The notes: generated from the sequence alone by a model not told the origin. Counted from the first letter of the stretch, positions 19,860 to 62,520 are shown. The stretch: DNA of 64,000 nucleotides from Psammoneis japonica (GCA_008632985.1 QPGO01000088.1:62001-126000); one strand, 5' to 3'. A program made the numbers and translations.

Positions 19860-22800
19860 CTCACGGAGTGATGTCATTCAGAGCATGATGAAAAGAACCA
19901 GGTTGTGCTGCAAACTTCTCTCAAGTGGATCAGCAGGCACTGCTTCTTGAAAATGCACTGAGGTCAATGAGAAGTTGCCATTGCACCACTTTCACTGCAA
20001 ACAAGAAACAAGACAGCACATATGTGCACTCATTTTTCAAAGACAAGGTCTTTTCAACCCACATTTGTCCTTTTGTGATTGTGCCCTTTTCTTTTTTTGA
20101 CAGAGAACACCAACGCACAACAAGGCAAATTTGCACATGCTCTGTGTTTGGGCTGCATCTCCTCCTTCAACAATGATCTTTTTGTGAATGCTGCATGCAT
20201 CATTCCAACACACAGGCAAAACCCCACTCTGTGTGTTGGAAAGCACTTGGTTTTGTGCATTTGTTTGGTTGTTCCAAAAGGAGGAGGAGCTTCAGCCCCG
20301 CCAACACAAAAAGAGTTGTTGATTTTGAGAGCAAAATTCAATTTGTTCCCATGAGTGAATGATGCCTGCAGACATGTGGGAGGAGCATTGTGAACTGTGC
20401 TGCATGATGGGGAGCTCTGTGCACAGAGCAAAATGCTTTTTGTCGAAATGTCAAGTTGATGTGTGTGCTTGTTTTATTTTGAGAACTTCTTTCAACCACA
20501 CAACTGCAGAAGGGGCACTGGCTGACAATGTGAAGTGGATGTGAAGTGTGTCATGAAGACAATTGCTGGACACTGGGCAAGTGTTGCTGAACTCACAGAG
20601 TTCCGTTGCACAAAGTCTCTGCCCATGAGGTGGTGGCATCAAAACACATCTGTGCAATGCAGAAACAACCATGTGCAGACCAATTTAGATGTGTGTGGCA
20701 GAATCAATGGCACCAGCTGTGTGTTGATTGAGCCCAGAGCAGGGTGTTGAAATGGCCTGAGGTGATGGTGCAAGAACTCCAAACTTGAAAGTTGCCACAA
20801 AATCCTTCCACAAGAATGTCTTTTTTCTTTTTTCGTGTGAACAGAAAGAGAAACAGCACCCACAGACAAAGCAAAATGTGGTGTGTCATGTGCTGTGGGG
20901 CATGACATCATGGACAACAGTGACACACAGGATGTGAGTGTTGTGCAAAAAAAAAAACATGAGGCAAAGTTCAAACATTGTCAATTTGATGAGTGTGTGA
21001 TGAGCAAACACTCTGGAAAAATTGTTGGCACATGTTTCCCCTGGTGCTGGAACAAGTCAATTGCCCACACCAGGTGGCAACTCCTTTGCTCCACTGCCAT
21101 TGGCACATTCAATCTGGCAGCAGAGCCAGCCAGCATTTCCTGCTGTGTGGCATGATTCTTGTGTTTTGATGCCACCAACACCCAGTCTGGCACAAAACCA
21201 GTCAAAATCTTTTTTGCTGGCTGGTCTGCAGCACTTCTGATCTCCAGCAAAAAGGATGACTCCGACTCTGGTGCACACCAGCACAGTGTGCCGTTGGGAA
21301 AGAAGCAGTCTTTTTGCCTTGGCTTTCTTTGTTGTGGCCAGGTGCAAGCACATGAGATCCATTGCAAACTGAGCTGCTGACATTCAAGGCAGTGTCAACA
21401 CATCATGGGAGGGGAAGCTGGGGTCAAGGGCATGACCATGTGCAAAGATTTTGCTCCTTGCACTGCTCTGGAGCCCCTCCTGTGCAGACCCATTTTTGCA
21501 GCACACCGTGACTGTGTGGCACACTGGTTTCCTTGGCTTGCCCAAAGCAGAACAAAAGAGGCTGTGCGTTGTTCTCATCAAAATGCCACTTCTCTGCTGT
21601 TCACAAAAAATTGAAAAAAAGCCAAAAAATTCCATCATCAATGCCCCACGTTTGAGTTGAGCGGGGGTTTTGCATCCATGTCATCAGGTCAACAAAAGTG
21701 CAAGGCAAGCCATGCTGGTGGTGTGGCATCTTTTGCCTCCCTGCCGGACACTCATGAAGTCACAGCTTTTGATCAAACCTTGCTTGGAGCCACAGCCCTT
21801 CATTGAGCTTTGTTCCAGTCCAAAAAGTCACACAGCAACAGCTGTTGGCACAAGTTTTGCAGCAGCTGGGACAAACAGGTTGTTTGAGACAAGTTGCTCA
21901 GCACGCACTTTTTCTAAAATGATGCAGGCAGAAGTGATGGCAGGCTCCACACACAAGATGCATGACAGGACACAGGACATCTTGCAACCATTTCCAGCCA
22001 TGTCTTTCCAGCCATTTTTTCAAATGCTGCAACTTTGGTCTGCTCTGCAGGACTGCTGCCAAGCACATTTGTGAGAAAGCAAGCAGCACATTTTTTCAGG
22101 CACAGGCATCATGTGCTGGACCAACAATGAGCTGGCCTTGCCAAGCAAGTGACATGCATTGTCAAGGTGTTCAGCAGGGTGAACAAAAGAACAAAAAGGG
22201 TCAAAAATTCTGCAAGCTTCTGGGGCCAATCTGGCCTTGGACTTGCTTGTGCCCAGTTGGGCAGCCCTGGCTTCAGATCATGTGTGCCCAATTGTTGCTC
22301 CAGCTTTGGGATTGGTGCTGGTTGCTGTTGCCAAGACTGACTTAATTTTCAGCAAATTTCAAGAAAGAGTGATTGGCTGCTGAGCTTTCAGCAGGAGATT
22401 CTATGGGGAGTTGCTTGTGGAGCAGTCTGCACATGCATGTGGTGGTGCAAGAGAAGAGTCCATGACCACAGTGTGCTGAAGGTGTGCAAGAGTGGTTCTG
22501 TGAAGGTGCGCGGTGACACCAAGAACATCATTCTCTCTTTTGTCTTGGCCTGTGACCAACATGGCCTGCAAGATCATTCAAAAGATTTTGACAAAACCCC
22601 GCAACAAATCAAATTGTGAGAGGATCCAGAGGAGGCACTTGCTGACCAGCAATGTCAATGCTGCTTGCCATCAATCAGCTGGAAGCTGCTCTAAAATGGC
22701 AGCACTTGTCTGTTGTGTGCACCACACACAAAACAATTACACGCAAACAAGCACTGGGCTTGCTCTGACCCTTGGTTTGGCTCTTTTTCAATTGGGATCT

Positions 22801-23150
22801 TTGTCATTGGAAGCACATTGCAAATGCATGCTGCCAACCAAGAACCAGTGCAGAGAAACTCTCCATCTTGGGCCATTTGGCATCTTCCACCAAAGTTGTT
22901 GCTAGATTCAATGTGACAAAATGGCAACATCAGACATTTTTTCATCCATGACCATTCGAGATGACAAAGGCATTTGCACCCTCCATCTTAGTTTGCCTGC
23001 ACAGAAACAAATCAATTGGTGACAGCATTTGTCCACCCCAGATCTTTTTTGCTGGCAACAGCCTTTGTCCACCCCAGATCTTTTTTAGTCATCAATTCTC
23101 CCTCCTCACCAACAACCTGCTGCATCTGCAGCAGACAACTCTGAACGACC
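19860..23150. mobile_element. Heavily mutated repeat or transposon relic of unknown class (TpA- and CpG-depleted island)
   Basis: About 10 TA dinucleotides in ~3.3 kb, few CG, strong TG/CA excess, no intact ORF. Element class not recognisable. Confidence 0.55.
23022..23086. repeat. Tandem duplication, 36-bp period, ~2 copies
   Basis: ACAGC(A/C)TTTGTCCACCCCAGATCTTTTTT occurs at 23022 and 23058. Confidence 0.85.
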
Positions 23151-23152
23151 CC

Positions 23153-23407: not shown

Positions 23408-23568
23408 TGTGTGGATTTGCTCAATGTCATAGAAATGGAGGCGGGATAAAGTAGGACTTTAGCATCGATCCTGCTACCATGGAGTTTAACGAGCCGCTGA
23501 GGCAAGACATGCTTGGACGATGAATAAATAATAGTCTATTTTAGATCCCGTCTGCCGAACTAAGAATG

Positions 23569-25925
23569 TCATCTGGTGTAGTCCTCATCTAATGCATCCG
23601 CCTCCGCATCAGTTCTTGACTGCAGCAGAGCTACACGAGCAAGCCATGCACAGACTCGAAAAACTTGGTACGAAAGGAAAACTCCCCATACTGAAGCAAG
23701 GTTTGTACCTGGCTTACCAGCGAGCGCAGCCTTCTTGACCCGAAGTAGGAGCCACGGAACAGCTGCAAAATACCCGGCATACGCTTTTCCGAGAAATCCC
23801 AAATCCTTGCGCCCAAGCAGCACGCCTTCAGTCGCACAAACCGTTCCGTGCAATGCGAAGACTCCCATGAGCAACGGTATGACAGAATTCACAAGATGAA
23901 CGACCATTGGATCAGACGTGAAGAACCTGGAAAGAAGCGGTATGCATCCGACTGCTGCAACCATGAATGAGCTAAAGACAGCTCCGGCTTTCACAAAGTT
24001 CATACTCGTCTTTCGCAGTGCCTTTGCTCGAGCGCTGCTAACCTTTTTTTCGGCAATGACTGGAACGAAACTCTGGGCCGTCAGACTGAGGGAGTCCGCG
24101 ATAGGACACAGGCAATAAAATAGCGAGACAATAACCTGCTGTGCTGCCATGCTAACAGTGCCCAAAGAACTTGATACAACGTGGGACATGGCAACGTATG
24201 AGGAAACCCGGCCAACTTGAGTTGTGGTGACTGGAACGACATATGGCGAGAACTCTGACACAGCCTCTTTTGAGGGAAACTTGAGCAAGTCGCGGCCTCT
24301 GAAGCGACCCTCCAGGAAACCTCTCACCGAAAAACTTTCATCTTGCTGCTTCCCGTCGAGGTGTTGATGCGGCTTTTCTCCTTCAGGGCGAAACCTTGCG
24401 GCAACCGAGCGGATTTTCTGCGAGAACCATTTCCGCTTCGCACCCTTCTCTGCACCTCCTGGGGATGGTACTTGTAGGGAGGAGAGAGCATCCGCAAATC
24501 TTCTCCTCCGTCTGGCGCCCTTTTCGTTGGGTTTCCCTGTTAGTTCAATAATCGCACTGCTTATGTTAATCACTTCCGGTCCCCGGCGTGGCTTGTGACA
24601 GAGCCAACGGATGAACATCGCCAAAGCTGCGTACTGAGAGAAAACAGTCGCCCACGCAGCACCTGCTGCACCACCAAAGAGAGGGTGGTTCATGCCAACA
24701 AAGGTCATGTCTCCTAGGAAGTTCACCACAGCCGCAGCAGCCAAAACGTACAGAGGAGATCGAATGTCCTGCATGCCTAGGCACGCAGCCTGGGCCGACC
24801 CCAAAACAGCCGCGGCAGGCATGCCAAGAGCACGAATGCGAACGTATTTCATTGCAGCAGCAAAAACATTCGGACAAAGTCCATCGTTTCCAATAATGGC
24901 ACTTAAGAGTGGTCTTGCGAATACCATCAAAATAGAGCCAAGACCAAGTCCAACATATCCAGATGCCTGAAGGGACGAAATTAGCGTTTTCGTGGTGCGT
25001 GGCTTCCCTTCCACGCCTCGATCGGTCTCCTGAGCTGCAGCGACCAAATTTGTTGTGGCTGTGTACATGAATGCCTTTTCAGCGAGTAAAGCAAGAGCAA
25101 GTCGTTCCGTGAGATCCGGAAGAACGTACACATGGGGAACACCAATCACACCGAATCACTTACAATGAGGAGGGCCGCATAATCCGTAACCGCAACAGCA
25201 GGATTCAATGCAGCTTGCTGCGAGGTCCCCGATAGCAAACCGACCGCACTTGTATCAATCAACGACAACAAAGGACTACAAAGCCAAACCCCTATCGCGG
25301 GTACAGCAAAGGTCAGAATCTTCTTGACACTTGGTGCCGTAACGCTCACTGCTGAATCCCCAACTACGGACGGCGCAGACACAATTTGCGGCATTTCCTT
25401 TGGGGCTTCCAGTGTACTGTTGGAAGGAGGACTGGAGATGAGCGGAATACCGTCGACAACCTCACTATGAAGTGAAGCCTCGGCAGCTGCTGCTGCTGCG
25501 AGGACAGCGCCCACATTTTCCGCCGACTCTTTCGCCTCTCTCTCCAGCTCTGTCTCCGCAGTAGTCTCTGCAGCGCCTAGAAGAAATTCAGTGGCATTTG
25601 AAGAACCTTCCACTGTATGTTCGGCGCCAAAGAGGAATTCTGCAACGTCGACCGGCTCAGTAGCAATGGGCTGTAGTTCATCTCCAAGCGTCAATGAATT
25701 CGATATACCCTGATTTGATTCATCTTCTTCAGCTGGGTCTGAATTTTCAATTGAGCGGTCATATATTCGGGAATTGTGGCCCAACTTTAAGCGGTACCTG
25801 CTTCTCGTTCCTACCAAAACAGATCCGTGGCTTCTAAAGGATTGGGATGCCTGCGGAGAAAATGACTGGGCCCTCGGCACCGCCAAAATCAGGCAGCTTA
25901 CCAACAACACACACTGTCTACGCAT
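23569..25925 (-). CDS. MATE efflux transporter (DTX46/47-EDS5-like), probably plastid-targeted; intron 25075-25163
   Basis: Signal peptide ending AQS-F, ILTFAVPAIGVWLCSPLLSLIDTSAVG, YVRIRALGMPA, GAAWATVFSQY. Confidence 0.88.
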
Positions 25926-26495: not shown

Positions 26496-26939
26496 GGATT
26501 CGATGGTGTGCGATGCCGATCTCACCCAGGACTAGCCCAAGGACTGCCTTGCCAAGAACCACCAAGAAGTGACTCGACATTGGAGCACTTAGAAGTCTCG
26601 TGGAGTAGAGTTTTCGGTAACACCCTACTCCGTACTAGGGGGGTTGGGTAAACCCATGCCCTCCGCAGGGTCTCGAGTGAAACTCGAGGGCTCGATGATT
26701 GGTTCATCGGACCATGCTCCGGGCGCTTCCGAGCGAACGCAGTGGGGGGTGCCTTCGGCATTGCGCGACGTCGGCACCCCGAACTGGCAGGATCTCAAAC
26801 TCGGAATGGAAGAGAACGCCAGACGCCATTTGTTTGATTACGTAGTTGGGCGTCGTCGAGAATGTGGAACCGAAAGGAACCGATCTAGACTCCAGCGACA
26901 GACTCCCGCGGTCTTGTCGACACAGGTGAGCACAAATCC
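26496..26939. repeat. Split direct repeat B2 (444 bp)
   Basis: Colinear direct copy of 27194-27637 with ~25 differing sites. Confidence 0.95.
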
Positions 26940-26958
26940 AGGGAGTGGTGGGTGGGTG

Positions 26959-27194
26959 GCAAAAAATGGCTTTTCCAATGCTTTGGCATGGTCCAGTCAC
27001 GTTGATCAGAGTTCCTGTCTCAACAAAGATGGAAAAGTGGGGAAACAGGATGCCGACAAGTTTGACCGGTCACAGAAACCGGTCATCTTGGCCCAGAGGT
27101 GCCCTCCTCTGGAAGAGGCACATGTCGGTGGACTAGCCAGATGAGAGGTCTTGCCTCGCACGGTTCGTCTCCATCTAAACTTGGGTGCGAAGAG
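26959..27194. repeat. Split direct repeat A2 (236 bp)
   Basis: Colinear direct copy of 35375-35610 with 9 differing sites. Confidence 0.95.
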
Positions 27195-27637
27195 GATTCG
27201 ACAGTGTGCGATGCCGATCTCACCCAGGACTAGCCCAAGGACTGCCTTGCCAAGAACCACTGAGAAGCAACTCGACATTAGAGTGCTTGGAAGTCTCACA
27301 GAGTGGAGTTTTTGGTGACACCCCACTCCGCACTGGGGGGGTTGGGTAAACCCATGCCCTCCGCAGGGTCTCGAGTGAAACTCGAGGGCTCGATGATTGG
27401 TTCATTGGACCATGCTCCGGGCGCTTCCGAGGGAACGTAGTGGGGGGTGCCTTCGGCATTGCGCGACGTCGGCACCCCGAACTGGTGGGATCTCAAACTC
27501 GGAATGGAAGAGAACGCCAGACGCCATTTGTTCGATTGCGCAGTTGGGCGTCGTCGAGAATGTGGAGCCGAAAGGAACCGATCTAGACTTCAGCGATAGA
27601 CTCCCGCGGTCTTGTCGACAAAGGTGAGCACAAATCC
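27194..27637. repeat. Split direct repeat B1 (444 bp)
   Basis: Direct copy of 26496-26939, abutting A2. Confidence 0.95.
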
Positions 27638-27720
27638 CCCCCGATGAGAACTCCCAGGCAGTGGCCACCACAGAGATCAGCTTGTGACAAACGCACCCTG
27701 AAGGCGCACCCGAGCCAGTT

Positions 27721-29343
27721 TCACATTTCATGAGTGTGTCTTAAGAAGCAAGGGAGGAGGAGAGAGATGTCAGCGCAGTGTTGCCTCATCTTGTGAGTCG
27801 GCCTCATCCCTCCAGCTCGATCCTTCTTTTTCCAACGATTCACCAGGTCAATGTCGTCCTCCGACACATTTCGAGCGATGGCTCTCGAATCCGACCCACG
27901 TCAGAAGGACCTGCTCACATCGCACTTGTCCTCAATGTCCGAATGGGAGGTGATGTCTGCCCCAAAGAGGGACGGGTGGTCGTCAAAAAGCTCCGACAGG
28001 GCGAGGTGAAGAAGTGCATTTGGGTCATGGGTGGACAAGACCTTCCCAGCATCATCCGACATGGCTGGGCCTCGAGCTCATCCTCTTGATGCCTGAAAGG
28101 TCACAACTGCCTGGACCCACTGCCGGAGGCGAATGCCTGATCCCGTGACATTTGCACTCGGAAGCAGGTGTTGGCGCTCCCCATGTTCTCCCTTGACTCG
28201 ACCGAGAAGCGGAATCACCATGCAGGATTGATGGAGAGGCAGGTGTTCTTGCATGGCGCCCAAATCCATGAGTGAGCCTTCGGGGCCTCGGAGGGACAAC
28301 GTGAAACCAGCCGCGAAGCAGAGGCCACCAGTCAAGCACCTGAGGCGATCCTCAGCTGCGGTGGCCCGGTTGAACTTCTCTTCGATCCGGGGCAAAAGAT
28401 GTTGCATGATCTGCACCGAGATGGCCCTGTCTGGTCTCCAATCTTGGCCCGTGCGCCTTTTGCAACCTGTCACAAACCTTTGGAACCAGAGGGAAGCGCA
28501 AGGGTCCTCGCAAATGCGGAGACATTGTTTGCCCTCAAGGTCCGCAAGCGCTGAGGCTCGCCTGTTTGCAGAAGCCGAGGACCTCACCTGATTCGAGTGC
28601 GCAGTCCGCAGCTTCCCAATGGTGTCGAATTGAGTGTAGAAGTCAGAGTGCCGACCCGGGGACGTCAAAGCCAAGACCACCTGCATCGCGACCTCATGTC
28701 CACAATGATCAAAGGACGGCAGAGGTCCTGGCTCCAAGTGAGGACCTCGGAGCCCCAAACGCTCTGAGAGAGCCAAACCCCGGGCGACCTTGGACGCATT
28801 GTTCTCTACCGTGGAGGTCTCCCTGCTCCAGAAAGCGTCCAGGTTAACCCGCCTGATACAAGCCAAAGCCACCTGGTCACGTGGTGAGGTAGAGAAGGGG
28901 TCTCTCTGGCACAACTTGTGGAAGATGCACCCGTCGCACTCAAACGCCACCATCAAATGGTCCCCGGTTCGCGCCCGTGTAAACTTGTCCTTGTCCTGTG
29001 GTTTCCGGAACCAGGTGTCATCCTCGATCCGAGCGGCGTCCTCACCGGGAAGTTCCTCGCTGTCGTTTTCTTGGTCGGGCTGGAGGATCCCCCCCAGGTG
29101 GAACGTCATGTTTTTGCTTGAAGTGTGGCACCCGGGACACCACGCTTTTCGACACGCGGGCCAGCCCCCGACACTGTGAACAAAATTGGCGAAGAAGATG
29201 CCCCTCGTCCACTTCAGCATCCTCCCACACTCTGCGCAGCGCCCGGTCCATTGAGCACATTTTTGGGGTGCCTTGGAGCTGCCACGGACTGTGCAGGACG
29301 AAAGGAAAAGCAAGGCCTGTGAGCAGAGGTTCGAACATCTCAC
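27721..29343 (-). pseudogene. Tyrosine recombinase of the retrotransposon; in-frame TGA at 28078-28080 and 27901-27903
   Basis: LSLRGPEG (catalytic Arg box) and LLGRVKGE. Reading through the stops gives SRSF*RGS (SFRRG box), VNRW and MRQHCAD, where the catalytic Tyr is expected. Confidence 0.85.
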
Positions 29344-32300
29344 CGGGCCAGAAAGGCCCGGCCCCAGCCGGAACTCGAAACACCAAGTCGGAAGCCTTGT
29401 GCAATTGTTTTTGCCACTCAGGGGTCATCAGGCGGGGACACACAAAGATGTGGAAAGAAGTCTGTCGCTTGAGTCGGGCAATCCGCAGTTCTTTGAGTGC
29501 ATTCCTTGCTGCTGCCGGGGGCGGAGCCCAGACCCAGGTGCCAGAGCGAAAAGCAGGCACTTCAACAGCTTCGTAGGGTGGGCAGCACCACCCAGACATG
29601 TCATGCCCTTTCTGACACCAATCAAGCGGGGAGAGCAGATCGGCTGTGGGAGATCCAGCCCAAGACTGAATCCACCCCAGGAGTGGAGGTGCTCGCTCAG
29701 TTGCCGGCAGGTGCAAGGGGACAAACGAGAGCATCTTGGCTCCATTCATCACCCCTTCCAAAAGGACCCCTCGAGAAACTCCGTCCGTGCCCTGGGCTGT
29801 CATGCGACTCCCTGAAACATGAATCAAGTGGAGTGTAAACCCATGCTCAGCCTCCAGGACTCTGAGCCGCACTGCTTGTTCCAGGAGTTTCGGGTTGGAA
29901 GAAGTTCCCTTGTAGACGGCGACTTCCGAAACCGAATTGTCCGTGAAGAAATGCAACACAGCACGGTCGAGTTCCCCCGCCTCGGCCAGTTCCTGGATGG
30001 AGTCCACTGTGTTGGTTAGTTCCTTCCAGTTTGACGAGTTCGACTGGTCGTCATCGCCCCAGACACCAATCCTGAAGACCATCGCCCCGTCCTTCGTTTC
30101 CACTGAGGATCCAAGTCCCTTCCCCGACGCGTCAGCAAACCCATGCAAGACCACCACGACCTTGGAGGACCTGATTACCCTGGTGGTTGGTTTTTCAGGT
30201 TCCAAGATCCGCTGCAGAGCCTTCAGATCCAACAACAGACGCGGCACCGCGCGAACGGACTCGGGGTGTCCCGCATCCTGGAGGGCCTCCCTGACTTCGT
30301 ACGGTTCCATGCCGAGCTTGTCCGCTTCGTGCTGAATCCACACTGCACATTCCTTGTCTGACACAGCCCATCCATCGGGCTTGCGGTTAGGTCGCCACCC
30401 ATCCAGGGTCAAGTGGATTCCTTTAAGGAACGGGGTGACAAACGGGCAGGTCATGGCCGTGTGGACTAAATGTCCTCGTTTCCTCTCCAAATCCTTGAAA
30501 TTGAACAGTGGGAGGGAGGAGGCGGCCGATGCGTCGTAGGGGCTCAACAGGTCTGTGATCATCGTCTTGCTCTTGTCCCACTTCGCTTGCGACAGGGATT
30601 GGGTGACGTCCCCATCTATCACTCGAAAGATCGCTCCGGCCCAGGCCCTGGTTTCGCGCTGGGATGGCGGGCGCACCTTCCGGGCCGCGTTTTGGAGACC
30701 AAGACACTGGAGTCTCGAAGCCATTTGATGACCCACTTGCCAAGCCTCTTCTTTGCTCGATCCCATGCCCCGCAGATCATCGACGAAGGTCTTTATGTCG
30801 CCTGCGACGACCGCTTGACGGGAGTTCCACTCAACCACCAGGGGCTTCTTCACATCGTAATTGGGATCGCCCGGCAGATTGAATGGGATCTTGTCAAAGC
30901 CCATCGGGTTCCCCGGCCGTCCCGGGTCCCCCCGGGCCACCTCATCAGCCCAACAACAAGCGCGCACGGCCAGGCAAGGACTGGGTTTCACACCCATAAA
31001 TGAGCGGTTCCACCTCTCCAACCCCACAGGAGCCTGACCAGCCAAAGGTTTCGGCAAGTGGTCGCGAAGCGGGGTCAGGTCGATCCCGGCGTAAGGCCGA
31101 ATGCGGGGGTCCACAAAGAAGTTGAGAAACATGTCCCCCAGGTTCAAGTCAACAGAGAAGGTGGTTGGTGTCACACAGCCGAGGACTGAGGATGCAGTCG
31201 GGAGGTAAAATGAAGGTGCCCACAGCGCGTCGTTTAGCCCCGACGAGGCACCGTTGTAAACCATGCGAATGTCTTCCACGACCTCTTCCATTCTTCCATC
31301 GCTTCTCGGCAACAGAGACACCGCCTTGGGGACCCAAAAACAGTCGGTGAGGCTGGACACTGGGCCCGCCTCAATGTAACCGTGATCCCGGACCTTCTGA
31401 AGTTTTGTCGCCATCTGCTGGATCTCATTGGATGTGCCGCGGATGCGTTGCCGCCGGCGATTTCGAGGGAGGGTGGTCTGGACGAAGATCGGAGTGCCGT
31501 CACGGGCCCCATCCCGCTGCTCGGGAGAGGGCCAGCGCCAGAAGAAAAGCGAGGACCCCCGGTCCCAACTCCACCAAGAACTCCCCAGAGCCTGAATCAA
31601 GACGTCAGCCCCCAAGTTGGCGTCCAACAAAAGGGAGGGGAGAGGTGGGTCCCGGTGCAAACCCCCCTGTAGACTCCCAACAGAGTCCCCAAACCATCGA
31701 TGAAGGTGTGCCAGGCGGGTCATCCACCCTGGGCCACAACACCGACGCAGGAAACCCAATGGCGACCGGGTCAAGCGTCGCCGCCACCATCGGTGGGCCA
31801 GCCCGCGAAGGGCCGGAAGCACCGGTTCAAACATGGGAAACAAGAGTGTGATGCGCTTGTCCCAAAGGCGACAAGGGGGGGCAACCGAATCCCCTTTTGC
31901 CGCCTTGGCGGCAATCAGGGACAAATCGATCCAGTCGTGCGACAAGCACCGACCCAGGCGCGGCAACCATGTAGCCCGAGGACCAGATGCCGGAAGCTCA
32001 GGAGACCGCGTGGGTTGGGCTGGCTGGACCTCTGGCGGCAACTCTGGGCTGGAGTGTTGTAAAATGAAACCGTCCGTCACCACATGGAGGAGATTTAACG
32101 GAACCATCTGAGTGAGGCCTTCACCCCCCAATCGGTCCCGAATGGCTGGAGACTGAAACCGAGTGGGAAAATCCCACCCTGCAAGGAGTTCATCTCCAGT
32201 GAAAGCACGAAGAGTCCACCCCGTGGGTGACCGGTGGGACTGGCAAAGAACCTTCCGCCCCAAATGGTGGGGGTGCAGCAAATCGCACTCACGGTGCACT

Positions 32301-32860
32301 GTTTCACCCGGCTCTGATGGGCCAACCTGCCCCTTGCATTTGCAATCGATGATGTGGCCGATGGTCCGCCGCAACCCGTGATCGAGTTGTGGCAACGCGC
32401 CCCCGACACAGTAGAATGTTGTTCGGAAGGAGGTCACGCCTCCAACCGCCGAATGAGCAATGGCTGAATGAGGGAGATGCTGGAGCCCCTTCAACGCTCG
32501 TCTCGACATCCCCCCGACCGGGACCATGTGCATCGGGCACGAGGTCCCCACTCGCGAAACTCTCTCCAAAACACAGGGAGGGCCCGAAACTGGTGCCAAA
32601 TCTGCGCTCTCCAACGCATGAGGCACCCCAGAGAAAGGGATGCGCTGAAGAGAAGCTCCGTCTTGCGACTCAAAAAGCGCAACAAGGACCGACTCCAAGG
32701 GAGACGGGTCAGAATCAATCGAGCAAAGAACAACTCGAGGCCACTCAGCACAGCGGAGGGCCAAGAGCCAAATGGGGGGACCCCCAGAGATGACCAAGCA
32801 TGTCCCACGAAAAGCAAAGGATTTGCGGCCGCGGATGACGTGCCCCACATTTTCGTTCAC
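29042..32860 (-). CDS. Pol-like ORF: N-terminal extension, reverse transcriptase, RNase H, C-terminal DIRS MT-like domain (degenerate)
   Basis: WVPK...IRMVYN, DLNLGDMFLNF, MGVKPSP, FVDD; RNase H FADASG, SSNWKEL, FTDN, HVSG and DGVSRG; WVWAPPP...IFVCPRL...W. Confidence 0.88.
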   Translation of the reverse strand: MNENVGHVIRGRKSFAFRGTCLVISGGPPIWLLALRCAEWPRVVLCSIDSDPSPLESVLVALFESQDGASLQRIPFSGVPHALESADLAPVSGPPCVLERVSRVGTSCPMHMVPVGGMSRRALKGLQHLPHSAIAHSAVGGVTSFRTTFYCVGGALPQLDHGLRRTIGHIIDCKCKGQVGPSEPGETVHRECDLLHPHHLGRKVLCQSHRSPTGWTLRAFTGDELLAGWDFPTRFQSPAIRDRLGGEGLTQMVPLNLLHVVTDGFILQHSSPELPPEVQPAQPTRSPELPASGPRATWLPRLGRCLSHDWIDLSLIAAKAAKGDSVAPPCRLWDKRITLLFPMFEPVLPALRGLAHRWWRRRLTRSPLGFLRRCCGPGWMTRLAHLHRWFGDSVGSLQGGLHRDPPLPSLLLDANLGADVLIQALGSSWWSWDRGSSLFFWRWPSPEQRDGARDGTPIFVQTTLPRNRRRQRIRGTSNEIQQMATKLQKVRDHGYIEAGPVSSLTDCFWVPKAVSLLPRSDGRMEEVVEDIRMVYNGASSGLNDALWAPSFYLPTASSVLGCVTPTTFSVDLNLGDMFLNFFVDPRIRPYAGIDLTPLRDHLPKPLAGQAPVGLERWNRSFMGVKPSPCLAVRACCWADEVARGDPGRPGNPMGFDKIPFNLPGDPNYDVKKPLVVEWNSRQAVVAGDIKTFVDDLRGMGSSKEEAWQVGHQMASRLQCLGLQNAARKVRPPSQRETRAWAGAIFRVIDGDVTQSLSQAKWDKSKTMITDLLSPYDASAASSLPLFNFKDLERKRGHLVHTAMTCPFVTPFLKGIHLTLDGWRPNRKPDGWAVSDKECAVWIQHEADKLGMEPYEVREALQDAGHPESVRAVPRLLLDLKALQRILEPEKPTTRVIRSSKVVVVLHGFADASGKGLGSSVETKDGAMVFRIGVWGDDDQSNSSNWKELTNTVDSIQELAEAGELDRAVLHFFTDNSVSEVAVYKGTSSNPKLLEQAVRLRVLEAEHGFTLHLIHVSGSRMTAQGTDGVSRGVLLEGVMNGAKMLSFVPLHLPATERAPPLLGWIQSWAGSPTADLLSPLDWCQKGHDMSGWCCPPYEAVEVPAFRSGTWVWAPPPAAARNALKELRIARLKRQTSFHIFVCPRLMTPEWQKQLHKASDLVFRVPAGAGPFWPGEMFEPLLTGLAFPFVLHSPWQLQGTPKMCSMDRALRRVWEDAEVDEGHLLRQFCSQCRGLARVSKSVVSRVPHFKQKHDVPPGGDPPARPRKRQRGTSR

Positions 32861-32884
32861 CTGTGGTGCGCCCCCCCCCTGGCC

Positions 32885-35356
32885 TCATTTCTTTGTCTCC
32901 AGAGCCTTCAGACGACGGTTCACCTCTTTCAGCTCCGCTTTTAACTTGTTCACCTCTTGGTGTGCCGTGTCGGCTCGCGCCTGCGCCGACTTTGCTTCCG
33001 TCCCCGCATTCTTGGCCTTGTCGGTGAGGGTCACAACCGTGGCCTGCAAAGCTGTCACCACTTCAAAACCCGAATTGGTCGCGAGGAACTTGACACACTC
33101 AGATGCCATCGAGGGGTGGTCCTTAAAGTTGTGCGCCGTGCATTCGGCCATTACGTCCTGGGACCTGAACACCGCCCAAAGAATTTGACTGCACACCGCA
33201 TCGGGATCCGTCCCAGCGATCGAAGTGAAAACCCCTGACCGAACCTGGTTGAGGTCATCGAAGATCCAGTGTACGAGTTTCGACGTCAAAGACCAAGCCT
33301 GTTTCTGAGAAAACTTGCTCAACTGCACAAGATTTTTGCAGGTCTCGTCCATGAACTGCATCAGGGCCCGTGCGAACGCCACGGACTTGGACAGAGCGTC
33401 TCGAACAACCTGGCTCTCAAAAGAACCGCTCGGGATCCTCTGGGAGATGTCATTTGGTGCATTGCGTTCGATCGTGACGATCTTTTCCATGACAAAGTGT
33501 TTGGCACCAGTGGACCCAGTCGTCCAATGGTCATGGGATGACACCTTGTCTGGGAAAGAGGGGTGCAGCCCGGGTGACTGAGCTCCTTTCGCTGACCCCG
33601 AGTCAAGGATCCTCGGCATGCTGCATTGGAAACTGGCAAGAGTTCGCGCATCCTCCTCCGCACTGATCTTCAAGTCCATCCGTTTGGACAACCCAGCAAG
33701 GAAGTGATGCAACGCGGCGAGCTCGGTGCCCGCAATTCGGCCCAACAACAAATTGGCATCCGTAAGACAGCCATGCACTCTGGAAGAAAAATGCTGGACC
33801 ATCCAGGCCTTGCACTCTGAAAATGACGAAACGCCTGCACCCGAGAATTTGATGGCTGAAGATTCCGATTTGGACTTCAGCTCATTGACCGCTTGGCTGA
33901 GGTCTCGGATTTGACGATCGAGTGTCCCAGAGGGCGAGACACCCGCTCCACTCACCCCACTGCCGAAGCCAGCAACTCCTCCACCCAACGTAGCGGCGTT
34001 CTCCAACCTCTGCACTTTTGCCACTAGTTGGTTGCAGACTCTCAGGGTCCCCGCCCTCAGAGAGTCCAGGTCGCGTTTAGGAGCGAGGCTGGAGAGCTGG
34101 GCCTGGACCCTTTGAAGAGCTGCAGTAAAACTTGACGCCAACCTGTTGGACCCGGCCCGAGCGCTGCTTTCCAAGCGGGCCATTTCAGTAGAAAAATCCC
34201 GAGGTTGAGCCGAACTCAGTGTCGACAGGTTAGCGAGCGTCCCCCAGATAGTTGGGGCTTCCACTCGCTGGTCGAGCTCCGCCGGAGGGGCACCAAGAGT
34301 GGCATCGAGCTGTTCCAACTTCCGACTCAGCACATCAAGTGCCAAGTCCGAGTCTTTGAACCTGGAGCAGGCTTTGTTTCCCAAGTCGACCAGAACTTGT
34401 CCCGTCTCCGACAAGTTTCGTTCGACCGACTGCACCACACGAGCCAGGGCCGCCGGGCTCTTGTTTGCTGCAAGAAATTGGGACGGGGCAGTGGCAATCG
34501 CCCGTTGGCAAGGGGAGAAGTGGCCAAACTGTGACCCCGGAAACAAATCGCTCCCAGGATCCTTGGTTTTCGCTGGGGTTTTGTAGGCCGCAGCCTCCTT
34601 GCACTGCTTGAGAGACTCGCCAAACTGATCCTCCGTCGGGAAGCGCGACTCACTGTTTCCTAGAGCTGGGAACTTTTGACGCCACCCCGCCAAGGTGTCC
34701 GATGCTGACTCCCACTTGACCAACACATCAGCAGAGACAAATGAGCCGTCGAGAGTGGGTTGGCAGAAAGCTGCACCCAGCGTCTTCAGGATCGACACCA
34801 TGCCGTTCGGAGGCACTTGTTTCTTGGATCCCTTGTGTTTCACTTTGCACTCCGAGGCTTTCTTGAAACAAAATGTCGCACCACTCCCAATTGCGCCAAG
34901 GCACCGGGTGGTGTCGGTGCCCTCCATCCAGACGACACAAAAACGAGGAGCATCAGACGAAGGAGACGCACCTTCCTCCTTCGACGTGAACGCCCCTCGA
35001 GTTGCTCCCTCATCCCCCGGAGCAAAAAAGTCCACGCGTGGTGCGTGGGCCTGCGCTCCGTCGGCTCGCGAAAGAAGGACATCGAAAGCCGAATCTGGGT
35101 TGGGGGAGTTGACCTCCCCCAATTCCGCGAGCTCAATGTCCGAGTGCCCAGCGTCGGTCATTCCAAGGTTCAAGCCCCCAAGGGAGGGGTTTGGGCCCTC
35201 AGTGCCCCCCTGATGACCCGCCCCAGAGGGTGGGGCCCGAGAAGCGGAGGACGAAGGAGAACGCGACGAGAACGGAGAGATGACATCTGACTCGAGAGTG
35301 CGGGCAATGTTGACGAAGGCCTCGTCATTGACGCCGGAAGCAAAGAAGTCAGACAT
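32885..35356 (-). CDS. Gag-like ORF1 of the retrotransposon
   Basis: First ORF after repeat A1, with a Cys/His cluster CLGAIG..FC....C...H and coiled-coil segments. Assignment is mainly positional. Confidence 0.7.
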   Translation of the reverse strand: MSDFFASGVNDEAFVNIARTLESDVISPFSSRSPSSSASRAPPSGAGHQGGTEGPNPSLGGLNLGMTDAGHSDIELAELGEVNSPNPDSAFDVLLSRADGAQAHAPRVDFFAPGDEGATRGAFTSKEEGASPSSDAPRFCVVWMEGTDTTRCLGAIGSGATFCFKKASECKVKHKGSKKQVPPNGMVSILKTLGAAFCQPTLDGSFVSADVLVKWESASDTLAGWRQKFPALGNSESRFPTEDQFGESLKQCKEAAAYKTPAKTKDPGSDLFPGSQFGHFSPCQRAIATAPSQFLAANKSPAALARVVQSVERNLSETGQVLVDLGNKACSRFKDSDLALDVLSRKLEQLDATLGAPPAELDQRVEAPTIWGTLANLSTLSSAQPRDFSTEMARLESSARAGSNRLASSFTAALQRVQAQLSSLAPKRDLDSLRAGTLRVCNQLVAKVQRLENAATLGGGVAGFGSGVSGAGVSPSGTLDRQIRDLSQAVNELKSKSESSAIKFSGAGVSSFSECKAWMVQHFSSRVHGCLTDANLLLGRIAGTELAALHHFLAGLSKRMDLKISAEEDARTLASFQCSMPRILDSGSAKGAQSPGLHPSFPDKVSSHDHWTTGSTGAKHFVMEKIVTIERNAPNDISQRIPSGSFESQVVRDALSKSVAFARALMQFMDETCKNLVQLSKFSQKQAWSLTSKLVHWIFDDLNQVRSGVFTSIAGTDPDAVCSQILWAVFRSQDVMAECTAHNFKDHPSMASECVKFLATNSGFEVVTALQATVVTLTDKAKNAGTEAKSAQARADTAHQEVNKLKAELKEVNRRLKALETKK

Positions 35357-35374
35357 GTTCGAGCGAGAGAGGGA

Positions 35375-35610
35375 GCAAAAAACAGCTTTTCCAATGCTTT
35401 GGTGTGGTCCAGTCACGTTGATCAGAGTTCCTGTCTCAACAAAGATGGAAAAGTGGGGAAATGGGATGCCGACAAGTTTGACCAGTCACAGAAACCGGTC
35501 ATCTTGGCCCAGAGGTACCCTCCTCTGGAAGAGGCATGTGTCAGTGGACTGGCCAGATGAGAGGTCTTGCCTCGCACGGTTTGTCTCCATCTAAACTTGG
35601 GTGCGAAGAG
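35375..35610. repeat. Split direct repeat A1 (236 bp), 5' end of the element
   Basis: Direct copy of 26959-27194. Confidence 0.95.
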
Positions 35611-37718: not shown

Positions 37719-38287
37719 TAGCTGTCCAAAGCAATTCTCTGTCCTTTGTCGTGGAGCGAGGTCAGAATACAGCAGAGTCTGTCCACCGGTGCAGTGCTGG
37801 CAGAGAGCGATGAAAGGGAACCACAGCAAACGCCCTGATTGACAGACTGTACCAGTACAAATTCTACACCAGATTTTCTTTGGACATAAGCTGTCCAGAG
37901 TCATCCCACAGCTTGAGAGGTCTGCACCACTATCCCCCGTTGATCATGAACACATACACCGTTGCATCGACAGACTCTCTCTGCCACTAGCTAGCTAGCT
38001 AGAGAGAGAGAGAGAGGCGTCGTTATTGTAGGTAAACACGTGCTGTGATTGGGGTCAGCTCTTTGTGGAAACACATTGATAGTAACATACTCGTTCCTTC
38101 AGTTTATCGAAAGGCTGATTGTAAGCAAGTCTCTACTGTACAGATACGGGACAGCTAAGAACGGTTGAACCCAGTACCGTGAGGTGGTAGCAGGTTTGCT
38201 GGTTAATTGTTGGCGGTCCCGCCTGTGTGATCTGTTTGTTTCCAAGTTGATAATTCAGCGGACACCTTGCAGCTACTTTCATAGACT

Positions 38288-46000: not shown

Positions 46001-49000
46001 TTGCGCTTTCGGGACGCTGTCGTCGCAGCAGCAATACCTCCATCGAGAGGCGGAGCCGGTGCGTTCTGACTTTCGTCACGCTTTCGAGACGCCGCCGCTG
46101 CAGCGGCAGCAGCAGCGATACCTCCACCAAGAGACGGGGTCGGTGCTGAATCCGTGTTCTGCTGATCTTCTTTGCGCTTTCGAGACGCCGCCGCTGCCGC
46201 CGCAGCAGCAATACCTCCACCGAGAGGCGGAGTCGGTGCGTTCTGACTTTCGTCGCGCTTTCGAGACGCCGCCGCTGCAGCGGCAGCAGCAGCGATACCT
46301 CCACCAACAGACAGGGTCGGTTCTGAATCCGTGTTCCGCTGATCTTCTTTGAGCTTTCGAGACGCCGCCGCTGCTGCAACAATACCTCCACCGAGAGGCG
46401 GAGTCGGTGCGTTCTGACTTTTGTCGCGCTTTCGAGACGCCGCCGCTGCAGCGGCAGCAGCAGCGATACCTCCAACAAGAGACGGGGTCGGTGCTGAATC
46501 CGTGTTCCGCTGATCTTCTTTGCGCTTTCGAGACGCCGCCGCTGCTGCCGCAGCAATACCCCCACCGAGAGGCAGAGTCGGTGCTGAATCCGTTTTCTGC
46601 TGATCTTCTTTCCGCCTTCGGGACGACGCTGCCTTCGCCGCCGCTGCCGCAGCAGCAGCGATGCCTCCACCAAGGGACGAGGTCGGTGCTGAATCCGTGT
46701 TTTGCTGATCTTCTTTGAGCTTTTGAGACGCCGCCGACGCCGCAGCAGCAGCAATCCCTCCGCCGAGAAGAGTCGGTGCGTTCTGGTTTTCGTCGCGCTT
46801 TCGAGACGCCGCTGCCGCTGCCGCAGCAGCTGCGATGCCTCCAACATGAGACGGGGTCGGTTCTGAATGCGTGTTCTGATCTTCGTCGCGCTTTTGAGAC
46901 GCCGCTGCAGCAGTAGCAACACCTCCGCCGAGAGACGGAGTAGCTGCGTTCTGATTTAAGTCGCACTTTCGAGACGCCGCTGCCGCGGCAGCAGCAGCGA
47001 TACCCCCACCAAGAGACGGGGTACTCACTGAATCCGTGTTCTGATCTTCTTTGCGCTTTCGGGACGCTGCCGCAGCAGCAGCAGCAGCAATACCTCCACC
47101 GAGAGACGGAGTCGGTGCGTTCCGACTGTCGTCGCGCTTTCGAGACGCCGCTGCTGCGGCAGTAGCAGCAGCGATACCTCCACCAAGAGACGGGGTCGGT
47201 GCTGAATTCGAGGTCTGATCTTCTCCACGCTGTCGAGATGCCGCCGCCGCCGCAGCGGCTGCAGCGATACCTCCACTGACAGAGGGAATCGGCGGCCGTA
47301 GCGAACCCTTCTCCGTTCCGTGTGTTTCCTTTGGGTGAGCGGGGCGTGCTATTGAACAAGCTGCCGCTCGATCGTCATCACGGGAGGCAGTGCTGCTAGG
47401 CTGTTTCATCTGAGCATCACGATGCTCGTGGTATGCAGCAGCGGGCGCTTGCTCAACGTCGGAAGAAAACTGAACCGAGGAGTCACGTGGCTCTTCATTT
47501 TCTTTCACGCAAAGATCTGTGGCAGGAAGGTCTTTGTTATTTGCCCTGCCACCACGCGACTTCTGAGACGTCGATGAGGCGGTATGGTCCGAATCTTGCC
47601 GTGCCTGCTCTTTGCTGGCATCTTGGTACATCATTACAACATTTTCAATCAAGCGTTCTACGCCATGACAACTGTTTTCTTTGTTTCGATCGTCTGATAT
47701 GGCAACGGAGCTGCTCTTCAAGGTAGGATGCAGCCTGCCGCAAAACGAGTCAGCTTCTACAATGTCGCGATGCAGCTCGTACCCTTCATGTCCAAGGACA
47801 CCGAAAAACTGAGCCAATTGCAGTTGGATCTCTACACCGGGATTTAAAATTATACGTAATGAGCGGGCCCACTATGAAGCTATGAAACCATATCGAGAAG
47901 AATCACTTACCAGCTAACATCCCATCCTTGAGACGCAAGTTCACTAACAAATGCCTATACCCTGTCGGAAGATTAGAAGGCAATATCGTCCCAACCGGCG
48001 ACAACCCAAAGAGGTTTCTTATTCGTACAACACGAAGGTGACGCCTGTCTTCTTTCAATTCGCCGCCTTTGATATCGTTCTCACTTTCAATGCAGATTTC
48101 ATTCAGCATGGACAAGGCACAAACCAGCGAACCTTCTTCGGGAAATACAAACTGGGCGCGGAGAACGTCCTTTACTTGGGAAGCATCTCCGTTGTATTTT
48201 CTATTTGCTTTTGTTTCGATAGCCGAAACGGTCTTTATTCCAACGGTGAATGATACGCTTAGCATCGTTGAGCTACCGGACTCGTCTATTGAATTCAGAG
48301 CATCAACGTTATGTCTCGCAAAAGACGCCATCTTCTCGATCAAGCTTAAAAAATGAGGTTTGTTTACCTCTGCCAGCTTTACGAGTTCGCAGGGAGTAAT
48401 GGAACTTCCTTGTGGCGTCTCATGTCTGAGAGATTGAAAGTTGTCGGTATCCGGTTCTGCAACTTCCGCATTACTCAGAATACCCCCATTGCTCTCCGTA
48501 CATGTATTGTGAAAGGAACCGATGCCTGTAAGATACGTCGAAATTGAGGGGAGCTCCCTTGCGCTTGATCGCGGCATAAACCCACTCAAGCTGTAAGGCC
48601 CAACGGATGCCTCAGGTTCAGGGGATTCAATAGAAAGCAAATGCCCTCTTTCCAGACTGTGACTGCGGATACTCCCGTACATGCTTCTGGTCGAAGACGA
48701 CCTAGTCGAGCTAACCTTGTAATCATCCAAGAACTCATTGACCCTGACTTGGTGGGTGCCTGGGCGTAACGTCATGTCATTCATAATCTCTGAATGCTTC
48801 CAAAATGCGACAATCTGACGCCATCGTAAAGATCCGTGAAAGCTTAGAGACGCCGAAAGATCCGGTGTAGAAATGTCCGAAAGGAAATCAAGCTCTGCCA
48901 ATGAGGAGAAACTGTAAAGAGCCACTTCAAAAGACTTCGAATCGCGTTCCTGAAGCATCTCCCCGAACGAGACTGGTTCGACCGGTGTCTGTATCGTAGA

Positions 49001-52835: not shown

Positions 52836-52955
52836 TTAAGTTTGCCTTAAACCGCACATGCATTCTATTTTTCGTGTTATGTAATCTGTATACAATCTCT
52901 ACGATGCCCGCCAAAATTGCGCTACTCGTTCCAGGACAACCATGACTGAAACCAT

Positions 52956-61189: not shown

Positions 61190-61479
61190 GGTGGTTCACT
61201 CCGCCATCAAACTGGAAAATGCGAAGCAAAAGATTGGCGTCGCACAACTTCGCGGCGTTTGCTTTCCCATCTACCTACAGAGATTTCTACGCAAGATAAT
61301 ACTAATTCCTAATTTCAACTTCAAGGATTTGGGATCGGCATCTGGCAATGGTCTCATGACCTCTTTCAACCACGGCCGATTCTCGTGAAAACGCTTCACA
61401 ACACAGACATGCCAGAGGGAAAGAGTTATTCGAGACTGTATAAAGTCAGATGACGTAGAACGACGCAAGAGTTTTGATT

Positions 61480-62520
61480 GGCTCTCGTCCCCTTGTTTTG
61501 TTCCTCGTCATTCTGTTCTTTTGATCGTTTTTTTTCTTCAAAGGGATCCAGAAGGAACACAAGGAACAAAGTCAGCAAATCATCCTGCACTCAACTGTGG
61601 CCCACAGCTGCTCTCCTGAATCCACACCCTCAACTTTTTCTCAGTCTTTCAATGACAATGGCGGGCAGGCTGTTTTGTGAAGAAGAAGAAAAAGACCTCT
61701 CTAAGCAGGGCGCCCTGTGCCACACACCACTTGGGGAGCAGCACACCCAGCTGCTGCTGCCGCTCGCACTTGCAGTTGCCAAAGCAACAAAAGTTTTGTT
61801 CTTCCTTTGCTTCCTCTAGGTGGCTTTTTTTGCTGGCACCGCGCTCTGCTGCCCCTCCCAAATGCACATGAACACACCTCACTTCTGTGAGCAGTGCCCA
61901 CATCATGCCATGACAAAGTCTCTTGGGGTGGGCAGAAGAGCAGCCTCATGATGTGTGGCAAAGTCTCTCCCAGAGCACAAGAAGTTGCTTTGCTGCAAGA
62001 AAAGAGTGAGCCTTGGGGTTGCAGCCGCATCTCCAAGCTCAAAAGCAAAAGATGTCCCTGTTTTTGAGTTGAAAGTGCACAAAAATGGATGCCCATCTCA
62101 TGGGACACAAAGTGAGCAAGAAGCTTGCCAGATGATGACAAGCACACTGTGCATCATCAAGGAGGAGTCATTGAGAAGGAGTGAGAAGCACTGAAAAGCC
62201 CTGCCTGGCTCCCCATGATGGGGCGGGCAACTTGCCACCTCACACCCATCTGAGCAGCGAGCAGAAGTTGTTGTGGGCAAGATGACACTTCTTGTTGTCA
62301 GCTCCAATGTGCAATCTCTTTGCCAAATGCTGAGAACAACAACACATGCTGCCTTAAAGTGCTTGGGTTTAAGAAGAGAAAGAAGACACACAGCTCAGAA
62401 AATGTCATGAAGCATCTCTTCAATGCCAGCTGTAAAAAGAAAATGTGTTGTTGCTTCTTCTCATGACTTCACAAAGAAGGGAGCTGTGTTTCATTTGAAG
62501 TGGCACCAATGCAGGTGGAT
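61480..62520. mobile_element. Third TpA/CpG-depleted island; degenerate repeat of unknown class
   Basis: About 5 TA in ~1 kb, TG/CA-rich, no intact ORF. Confidence 0.5.

Follow-up and report, generated by a model that had tools for sequence, protein, structure and literature searches.

A sequence signature of probable TpA-specific hypermutation in a retrotransposon and further islands of the diatom Psammoneis japonica

Local hypermutation confined to TpA dinucleotides has been demonstrated in the chlorarachniophyte Bigelowiella natans, where 230 of 231 mutations that accumulated in an integrated giant virus and virophage were A to G or T to C, these all at TpA, with a hypermutation rate of approximately 6e-7, a thousandfold above background, reached only in some lines (Mettrop et al., 2026; bioRxiv 10.64898/2026.01.13.699255). 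The same preprint reports 124 clusters of TpA-poor, CpA+TpG-rich windows in the B. natans genome and an enrichment of reverse-transcriptase and transposase domains among TpA-poor genes, and its authors propose an ADAT2-like adenosine deaminase (bioRxiv 10.64898/2026.01.13.699255). Here we analyse a stretch of 64,000 nt from the diatom Psammoneis japonica (GCA_008632985.1 QPGO01000088.1:62001-126000; hereafter the window), in which four islands, one of them a retrotransposon, are severely depleted of TA. An earlier reading of this DNA (the original prediction) had attributed the islands to a TpA-directed process for which it knew no described mechanism; the B. natans preprint removes that claim to novelty. 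It was the only paper describing such a process found by our search of the full-text literature outside subscription journals, and within the same scope no report of TpA hypermutation in diatoms was found.

Three further systems resemble the islands in part. Fungal repeat-induced point mutation (RIP) likewise represents a local transition hypermutation at one dinucleotide, which inactivates mobile DNA and spills slightly into the flanks. Its polarity, however, is the opposite: RIP turns CpA into TpA (C:G to T:A) and raises TA and AT content (as summarized in the RIPCAL abstract), whereas here TpA is nearly absent, CpA and TpG are doubled and GC rises. Decay of CpG through 5-methylcytosine (5mC) yields CG to TG or CA changes, which are seen in all islands, but it cannot remove TA. 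For Phaeodactylum, the methylated share of the genome is given as approximately 6% (PMC6604790). Finally, in animals APOBEC3 and ADAR kill retroelement copies and leave marks of the deaminase type in which the 5' neighbour is fixed, ADAR favouring U before the edited A (bioRxiv 10.64898/2026.01.13.699255). They act, however, on single-stranded cDNA or RNA, strand-asymmetrically and before integration, while in the islands the strands are equal and flanks and non-retroelement relics are affected too.

Dinucleotide counts confirmed the four TA-depleted islands amid TA-normal host sequence, with observed/expected (o/e) ratios for TA of 0.01-0.16 in the islands compared to 0.57 in the host. Island 1 (19860-23150) has a TA o/e of 0.05 (11 TA) and a CG o/e of 0.11 (20 CG), with TG at 1.87 and CA at 1.89; island 2 (26496-35610, minus strand) has a TA o/e of 0.16 (66 TA), a CG o/e of 0.78 and 58% GC; island 3 (35683-37718) has a TA o/e of 0.01 and a CG o/e of 0.35, its sole TA lying at 36078 exactly as claimed before; and island 4 (61480-62520, limits from the original prediction) has a TA o/e of 0.07 and a CG o/e of 0.19, with a core (61457-62354) that holds 2 TA in 898 nt at an o/e of 0.25 for CG and of 1.61 for TG/CA. 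Islands 1 and 3 and the core of island 4 carry no strand assignment. CG is scarce in islands 1, 3 and 4 (o/e 0.11-0.35) and near-normal in island 2. Host stretches of the window range from 0.54 to 0.59 for TA, from 0.91 to 1.04 for CG and from 1.06 to 1.28 for TG and CA. Measured against the host TA density of 0.0369 per base, the TA deficit has a Poisson log10 P of -37 for island 1, -72 for island 2, -31 for island 3 and -11 for island 4, and the longest runs without TA reach 1641 nt (36078-37719) and 1229 nt (20686-21915), compared to a mean TA spacing of 34 nt in the window. The islands consist of complex sequence, not simple or low-complexity repeats, and in a sliding-window profile of the 64 kb they are sharply bounded, with normal adjoining host genes. 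Relative to host densities, the combined deficit of TA and CG is balanced by an excess of TG and CA (293 vs 313 in island 1, 153 vs 177 in island 3 and 85 vs 66 in island 4), as predicted for transitions at TA and CG.

Island 2 is a 9.1-kb element with split direct repeats (26496-35610, minus strand), recognized from its repeats, from the predicted folds of its proteins and from a contig across the empty site. Repeat unit A occupies 26496-26939 and 27194-27637 (93% identity) and unit B 26959-27194 and 35375-35610 (94.5% identity), all on the minus strand, the last-named copy forming the 5' end in the sense orientation. Read in that orientation the order is B-genes-A-B-A, which we take to correspond to the split-repeat form A1-genes-B1-A2-B2. 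Also on the minus strand are a gag-like open reading frame (ORF) of 866 amino acids (aa) with a coiled-coil C-terminus, a single Tyr and no family assigned (32885-35485), a pol ORF of 1280 aa with a reverse transcriptase and RNase H fold in the predicted structure (29042-32884), and a broken tyrosine-recombinase gene (27721-29424; 448-aa frame, natural stop at 27721-27723). The relatives of pol number more than 200 (38-51% identity); they include proteins of Fragilaria crotonensis and Cylindrotheca fusiformis, and many are encoded on contigs of 8-10 kb. The recombinase frame has 2114 relatives. No frame of island 2 matched Pfam at default thresholds, RVT_1 matched weakly, in 4 of 26 members of the family and with E no better than 0.002, and a PDB sequence search with proteins of the family gave no matches. 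Because the proteins are too diverged for classification by sequence, the class was settled by fold searches. The model of pol residues 480-1060 (pLDDT 86) had its best Foldseek matches in the CaMV, MMLV, HIV-1 and Ty3 reverse transcriptases (E 2e-14 to 4e-12), and that of a recombinase relative (P0242, sharing 44% identity with the window ORF; pLDDT 89) in Cre, XerH and lambda integrase (E 1.8e-4). On the strength of these predicted folds, island 2 is classified as a tyrosine-recombinase (DIRS-order) retrotransposon carrying a recombinase instead of a DDE integrase, presumably Ngaro/PAT-like. It shares with that group the reverse transcriptase and RNase H fold, the tyrosine-recombinase fold, the split direct repeats and the lack of a multi-base target duplication, and differs in proteins that escape Pfam and PDB sequence searches and in being an inactivated copy.

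Contigs of two public sequencing runs, X1 and X2, were compared with the window over islands 1-3 and their flanks, island 4 lying outside the comparison; X1 may be the very sample behind the window assembly and is not independent of it. In one X1 contig, 26495 is followed after a single letter by 35611, at a depth of 28 compared to approximately 60 in the flanks. One haplotype therefore lacks the island 2 insertion, the borders are exact, and the joint leaves no room for a target duplication of several bases. It is probably a recent insertion. Within island 2 the contig depths sum to 147-1005, compared to approximately 60 in the flanks, so that related copies must be present elsewhere.

The repeats of island 2 carry evidence for TA loss. 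Across 680 aligned nt the pairs differ at 44 positions (6.5%), 40 of them at pyrimidine-purine steps. TA stands in both copies at 4 sites and faces TG or CA at 13, and at a further 10 sites CA faces TG, both bases being different; CG is kept in both copies at 38 sites and faces TG or CA at 7. There are 4 other differences, among which is the only A/G change outside TA. A one-parameter model, in which the two copies lose each ancestral TA independently of one another, with TG or CA as equally likely products, has its maximum likelihood at a loss of p = 0.71 per copy (95% interval 0.58-0.82) and predicts 3.1 sites with TA in both copies, 14.9 of TA versus TG or CA and 9.1 of CA versus TG (observed: 4, 13 and 10). 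The CA-versus-TG double sites are thus accounted for by loss of the same ancestral TA in both copies with different products, while CpG decay would supply only about 0.16 of them. The inferred ancestral TA density of the repeats is 5.3%. Expressed as fractions, approximately 71% of the TA and 8% of the CG have been lost in each copy, compared to 0.3% for all other sites, corresponding to per-site losses of 1.23, 0.088 and 0.0029 (approximately 420:30:1). Per site, TA loss in island 2 thus outpaced CpG decay by a factor of approximately 14 and other substitutions by one of approximately 400, a comparative estimate whose background rests on four events. A:T to G:C changes are accordingly concentrated at TA and show no general excess at other A:T sites. 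The proposal that TA loss came on top of CpG decay has to be turned around, with approximately 71% of TA but only 8% of CG gone from island 2. If the base rate of 4.8e-10 given for Phaeodactylum is assumed for the background divergence of 0.0029, a rough clock gives approximately 6 million generations and 2e-7 losses per TA per generation, an order of magnitude from the same four events.

As a control, we examined 15 direct-repeat pairs of at least 120 nt from 11 of 80 metagenome relatives. These pairs are 98.5-100% identical at a TA density of approximately 6%, similar to the ancestral 5.3% of the island 2 repeats, with 460 TA/TA sites, 2 sites of TA versus CA and none of CA versus TG (Fisher p = 3e-33). 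Two relatives have very long direct repeats, of 3.1 kb in L024 (357-3491 and 8469-11604, 99.97% identical) and of 1.5 kb in L057 (352-1883 and 9810-11342, 99.9% identical), which could be tandem or nested copies or an assembly duplication.

TA loss is a property of this copy and not of its family. All 80 related metagenome loci have TA o/e ratios of 0.40-0.77, and among their 2053 windows of 500 nt there is not one with a ratio under 0.2. Dividing the TA o/e of island 2 (0.16) by the retained fraction gives approximately 0.5 at the time of insertion, similar to host and relatives. Young active copies already free of TA would have spoken against a mutational origin; the youngest copy here is TA-poor but dead, and the other family members are TA-normal. 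The proteins tell the same story, since Tyr codons require TA and since TAY to TGY turns Tyr into Cys and TAY to CAY turns it into His. Tyr content of pol is 0.78%, the lowest among 121 sequences (relatives at least 1.35%, median 2.4%), with Cys and His raised relative to relatives; it is 0.12% in the gag-like frame and 0.22% in the recombinase frame, compared to a median of 2.5% among recombinase relatives. At 11 columns of the pol alignment with a Tyr majority (63 relatives) the window copy has Cys at 4, His at 1, Tyr at 4 and Phe at 2, while relatives average 0.03 Cys; at 4 such columns of the recombinase (46 relatives) it has Cys at 3, His at 1 and Tyr at none. Combined, the 15 columns read Tyr 4, Cys 7, His 2 and Phe 2, compared to an average of 0.03-0.09 Cys per sequence in relatives. 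The C-terminal 'HY' of the recombinase, conserved in the family, reads 'HC' in the window copy (TGC at 27775-27777); its tyrosine is presumably the nucleophile. The recombinase gene further contains in-frame TGA codons at 28078-28080 and 27901-27903, the latter in a column of conserved Arg, where it could have arisen from CGA.

Retention of conserved Tyr (27%, 4 of 15 columns) equals that of TA in the non-coding repeats (29%), which argues that the losses occurred unfiltered by selection, in a dead copy. The long frames of island 2 nonetheless survive because TA to TG/CA changes are unable to create an in-frame stop. DNA without TA also lacks TAA and TAG and so acquires long spurious open frames on both strands: between 26400 and 37800, the strand opposite the element genes carries about ten frames of 158-197 aa, and a 272-aa frame is found in island 3.

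Both strands are affected. TG and CA counts are 380:390 in island 1, 636:697 in island 2, 231:229 in island 3 and 101:109 in island 4, and the 13 singly lost TA of the repeats became TG in 8 cases and CA in 5, their flanking bases being too few to reveal a motif. Runs tests for strand-coordinated TG or CA gave no consistent signal across the islands (z = -3.6 for island 1 and 0.49, 0.65 and -0.12 for the others; host -2.2 and -0.9). The clustering in island 1 could reflect strand-wise bursts or the original coding strand of the relic.

The contigs revealed TA loss outside the islands as well. In the left flank of island 1 (19540-19849) the window keeps TA where X1 or X2 contigs read TG or CA, namely at 6 of the 25 TA between 19500 and 19860 (19540, 19544, 19555, 19568, 19828 and 19849), compared to one other listed difference (19588, CG to CA) among 311 other positions (Fisher p = 6e-7). 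For the X2 contig concerned, 5 of its 7 differences are listed; overall, 40 contig differences are listed among 2330, so that site-level results represent a sample. Island 1 itself was correctly predicted, but in another haplotype its TA-poor state extends slightly past the left edge that had been assigned to it. Just within its right edge, the TA at 23086 reads TG in X1. Four of the 20 remaining CG of island 1 are polymorphic, those at 20114, 21263 and 21293 being TG or CA in X1 and that at 21507 reading A; the remaining contig differences are of mixed kinds. At both 19958 and 20573, CACTG in the window reads CATTG in X1, an identical change in an identical pentamer. Among the 40 differences listed, the 16 best-supported window-specific sites in island 2, polarised by the other copies, comprise 8 CG to TG/CA changes, 2 CA/TG doubles and 1 TA to TG change. 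Changes on two strands and in host flanks argue for a DNA-level process on resident sequence, and against editing of RNA or cDNA before integration. Taken together, these data show that TA loss is mutational, affected both strands of a dead copy, and is not explained by family composition, selection or assembly error. The central claim of the original prediction, a second process distinct from CpG decay that converts A:T to G:C at TpA on both strands of mobile-element DNA, is thereby borne out by the repeat pairs, the relatives and the Tyr columns.

Sequence context influences the loss. Only 6 of the 66 surviving TA of island 2 lie in ATA or TAT, compared to 801 of 1697 host TA (p = 8e-11), and TA in these contexts seems to be lost first. 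This preference accounts for the lower ApT and higher GpC of the islands relative to the host.

Since TA loss is approximately 14 times faster than CG loss, the islands can be ranked by age. Judged from composition, the order would be, youngest first, island 2, island 3 (CG o/e 0.35), island 4 (0.19) and island 1 (0.11). CpG decay follows TA loss: young islands are TA-poor and CG-normal, old ones deprived of both. In island 3, TA is missing throughout while the surviving CG are concentrated at both ends. On the right side of island 4, the TA deficit ends at approximately 62355-62530 and CG remains low to approximately 62770, outlasting the return of TA by some 250-400 nt; the depletion in this island is as predicted, its right border is not. 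The two processes therefore have non-identical borders. Directly to the right of island 4, 62520-62800 is almost devoid of CG (a single one from 62258 to 62772), rich in TG/CA and well supplied with TA, 17 of them in approximately 170 nt (62615-62783). This stretch may have undergone CpG decay while keeping its TA, or may differ in origin.

Islands 1, 3 and 4 were searched for traces of their origin. A six-frame Pfam scan with stops as X gave nothing below E 0.07, tblastn with the three island 2 proteins and 120 relatives found nothing at E ≤0.01 in the window once island 2 had been masked, no nucleotide similarity between islands was found, and terminal inverted or long direct repeats were not found in these three islands. 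Islands 1 and 3 are relics, island 1 having no recognisable gene. Summed contig depth is 51-80 over island 1 compared to 58-65 over the flanking genes, and in island 3 approximately 750 at 36159-36775 and 690 at 37393-38000. The depth of island 1 gives no indication of close paralogues, although depth is not copy number and is silent on past repetition. A mobile-DNA origin of islands 1, 3 and 4 is suggested by their TA and CG state, and for island 3 also by the high contig depth.

At the level of sequence, the diatom islands agree with the B. natans process on every count, on comparative evidence rather than mutation accumulation. As in B. natans, changes run from TpA to TpG or CpA on both strands, in islands of foreign or mobile DNA and hundreds to a thousandfold above background (bioRxiv 10.64898/2026.01.13.699255). 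In the diatom, A:T to G:C changes are concentrated at TpA in the repeat pairs, the Tyr to Cys/His columns and the flank differences; the islands have normal neighbours, island 2 being a retrotransposon and the origin of the other three being inferred; and the rate lies orders of magnitude above background (approximately 420:30:1, a comparative figure). The two cases differ in the host, a chlorarachniophyte (rhizarian) compared to a diatom (stramenopile), and in the targets, a giant virus and virophage compared to a dated tyrosine-recombinase retrotransposon. They differ further in extent, the virus insert retaining a TA o/e of 0.45 while loss has here gone to completion (one TA in 2 kb), and in the CpG decay that accompanies TA loss here, the word 'CpG' not having been found in a first search of the preprint text. 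What appears to be new, therefore, is TpA hypermutation in a diatom, on a retrotransposon, at saturation and together with CpG decay, the kind of process itself being known from one unrelated alga.

We propose that silenced mobile-element DNA is hypermutated locally from TpA to TpG or CpA, through A:T to G:C transitions on both strands. The data place the process in the copy already resident or, at the latest, in double-stranded DNA as it integrates; they also show that it spreads slightly beyond the element borders and is paralleled within the islands by a slower decay of CG to TG or CA. That a real, local, TpA-specific mutation process is at work we consider highly probable, and that it acts in place after insertion we hold with good confidence; a process in place, at the DNA level and specific for TpA, whatever the enzyme, is likewise likely. 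The chemistry might be an enzymatic deamination that turns the adenine of TpA into hypoxanthine, which the following round of replication would read as G, as proposed for B. natans; it is our tentative choice and may well be wrong. Targeting would depend on the chromatin or 5mC state of silenced DNA and not on sequence repetition. More speculative, and somewhat doubtful, is the wider idea that TpA hypermutation could be an old chromatin-targeted genome defence common to diatoms and chlorarachniophytes, and possibly to stramenopiles, alveolates and rhizarians, exerted by an adenine- or thymine-editing activity on double-stranded DNA and fast enough to destroy a copy while one haplotype is still without the insertion.

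Targeting by repetition itself, as in RIP, would restrict the process to duplicated sequence, perhaps in the sexual cycle, with a polarity opposite to that of the fungi. The multi-copy state of the island 2 family (depth 147-1005 compared to approximately 60), the high depth of parts of island 3 and the slight spread into flanks, also known for RIP, are in keeping with it. Island 1, however, has the depth of its single-copy flanks, subject to the same caution that depth is not copy number and that it may have been repeated in the past, and the giant-virus insert hypermutated in B. natans exists as a single copy and acquired its mutations while the alga was propagated asexually (bioRxiv 10.64898/2026.01.13.699255). 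We regard repeat induction as unlikely. The original description of the process as repeat-restricted likewise went beyond what the depth of island 1 and the TA to TG/CA differences just outside the islands allow.

A different chemistry at the same dinucleotide is distinctly unlikely but would leave the same footprint. Oxidation of thymine at TpA by a TET/JBP-type enzyme to 5-hydroxymethyl- or 5-formyluracil, mispairing with G, would produce T to C on either strand, and because TpA is palindromic a thymine-directed process gives equal, symmetric TG and CA products. It is also to its credit that 5-formyluracil mispairs with G and that the hydroxymethyluracil of dinoflagellates prefers TpA. Nothing in the window speaks for it, however, and the B. 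natans authors favour adenine deamination.

The company of CpG decay raises an explanation by biased repair. Here a T:G mismatch glycosylase in methylated chromatin would over-correct mismatches at TpA to C:G, and the co-occurrence of the two signatures does imply 5mC and T:G repair in the islands; very-short-patch repair, linked to CTAG depletion in E. coli, offers an analogy. Yet an excess of approximately 400-fold would presuppose implausibly many T:G mismatches at TA, such CTAG as remains is over-represented rather than removed, and CpG still decays, so that T:G repair cannot be hyper-efficient there. We consider biased repair improbable.

Island 2 being a retroelement, its RNA or cDNA might have been edited by an ADAR/ADAT- or APOBEC-like enzyme before integration, which would fit the recent insertion indicated by the empty-site contig and account for its heavy mutation. 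This is very improbable given the near equality of strands in island 2 and among the singly lost repeat TA, the TA to TG/CA differences in host DNA outside elements, and the TA-free islands 1, 3 and 4, which show no signs of a retroelement and whose CG decay needs residence in the genome.

Two further explanations are hardly credible. Families intrinsically poor in TA, whether because UpA is selected against in their RNA, because nucleases are avoided or because of codon usage, would agree with the genome-wide under-representation of TA as seen in the window and with the very long frames of island 2, but are contradicted by the 80 of 80 TA-normal relatives, by the Cys or His found in 9 of the 15 columns of conserved Tyr, the recombinase 'HY' among them, and by duplicated repeats that differ mainly at TA, the long frames being expected anyway once TAA and TAG vanish and no stops arise. 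Miscalling of modified bases in methylated repeats during sequencing or assembly, familiar from some long-read base-callers at methylated motifs and conceivable as the islands are likely methylated, is at odds with the coherence of protein-level changes, in-frame stops and mass balance, and with X1 contigs that carry and so support the island sequence with few differences (4 letters over 21217-22708 of island 1 and 9 letters over 19589-20379), the independence of X1 from the assembly not being on record.

Several points nevertheless weigh against an in-place TpA-directed process as proposed here. The possible identity of X1 with the assembled sample may make it weak as independent confirmation of the island bases. 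The DNA spectrum is not polarised by an outgroup: among the 40 differences listed, the sole TA to TG change polarised by other copies is that at 34988, and half of the 16 listed window-specific sites of island 2 are CG to TG/CA. We assume that the split repeats started out identical when the element inserted, on the basis of the near-identical repeats of relatives, which come from metagenome assemblies where repeats may be collapsed or duplicated, and of the DIRS-type replication model. The signature occurs in none of the 80 metagenome relatives, and perhaps only some diatoms, or only some conditions, give rise to the process. Islands 1, 3 and 4 are without a demonstrable transposon or foreign origin. 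In Phaeodactylum, mutation accumulation showed a GC to AT bias with CG, CC and TG as mutagenic contexts, CG being the most mutable, and TpA is not mentioned in the part of that report available.

The host genes of the window are ordinary eukaryotic ones with long exons, encoding ABC transporters, an SMC-like ATPase, CLP1/NOL9, MatE, RabGAP-TBC and TPR proteins and ALG8. For the ABCD-type transporter, the top match is unnamed and 74% identical, and the named best relatives are all diatoms (Odontella, Seminavis, Cylindrotheca, Nitzschia, Pseudo-nitzschia and Amphora; 61-67% identity). X2 contigs cover genic parts only and do not extend over islands 1-3, so that they provide no evidence either way on island expression. 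In the MatE-family gene, an X2 contig skips 89 nt (25074-25162) whose CT..AC ends read GT..AG on the minus strand. The skip resembles a spliced intron, and X2 looks like an RNA run though it is not recorded as one. A TA-poor, GC-rich stretch at 45.5-47.4 kb was rejected as a further island, given its CG o/e of 1.2-1.3, a TG/CA of approximately 1.0 and its location inside a long host ORF. The surrounding 45200-47400 (62% GC, TA o/e approximately 0.27) lies in a 2592-aa minus-strand ORF and is unlike the rest of the gene in composition.

For the annotation of transposons, the consequence is that hypermutated elements lose both similarity and tyrosines, so that relics escape recognition, and gene finders probably call spurious genes in TA-free DNA. 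Dating by the divergence of terminal repeats fails, as illustrated by 44 differences in 680 nt (6.5%) in an insertion that one haplotype is still without. The relative rates (TA far above CG, and CG far above the rest) and the preference for ATA/TAT are concrete predictions. As a second lineage, the diatom case would extend the phenomenon beyond one eukaryotic supergroup, and retrotransposons would join viral inserts as its targets. If true, a natural A:T to G:C editor acting on resident double-stranded DNA would be of interest both to the biology of genome defence and to base editing.

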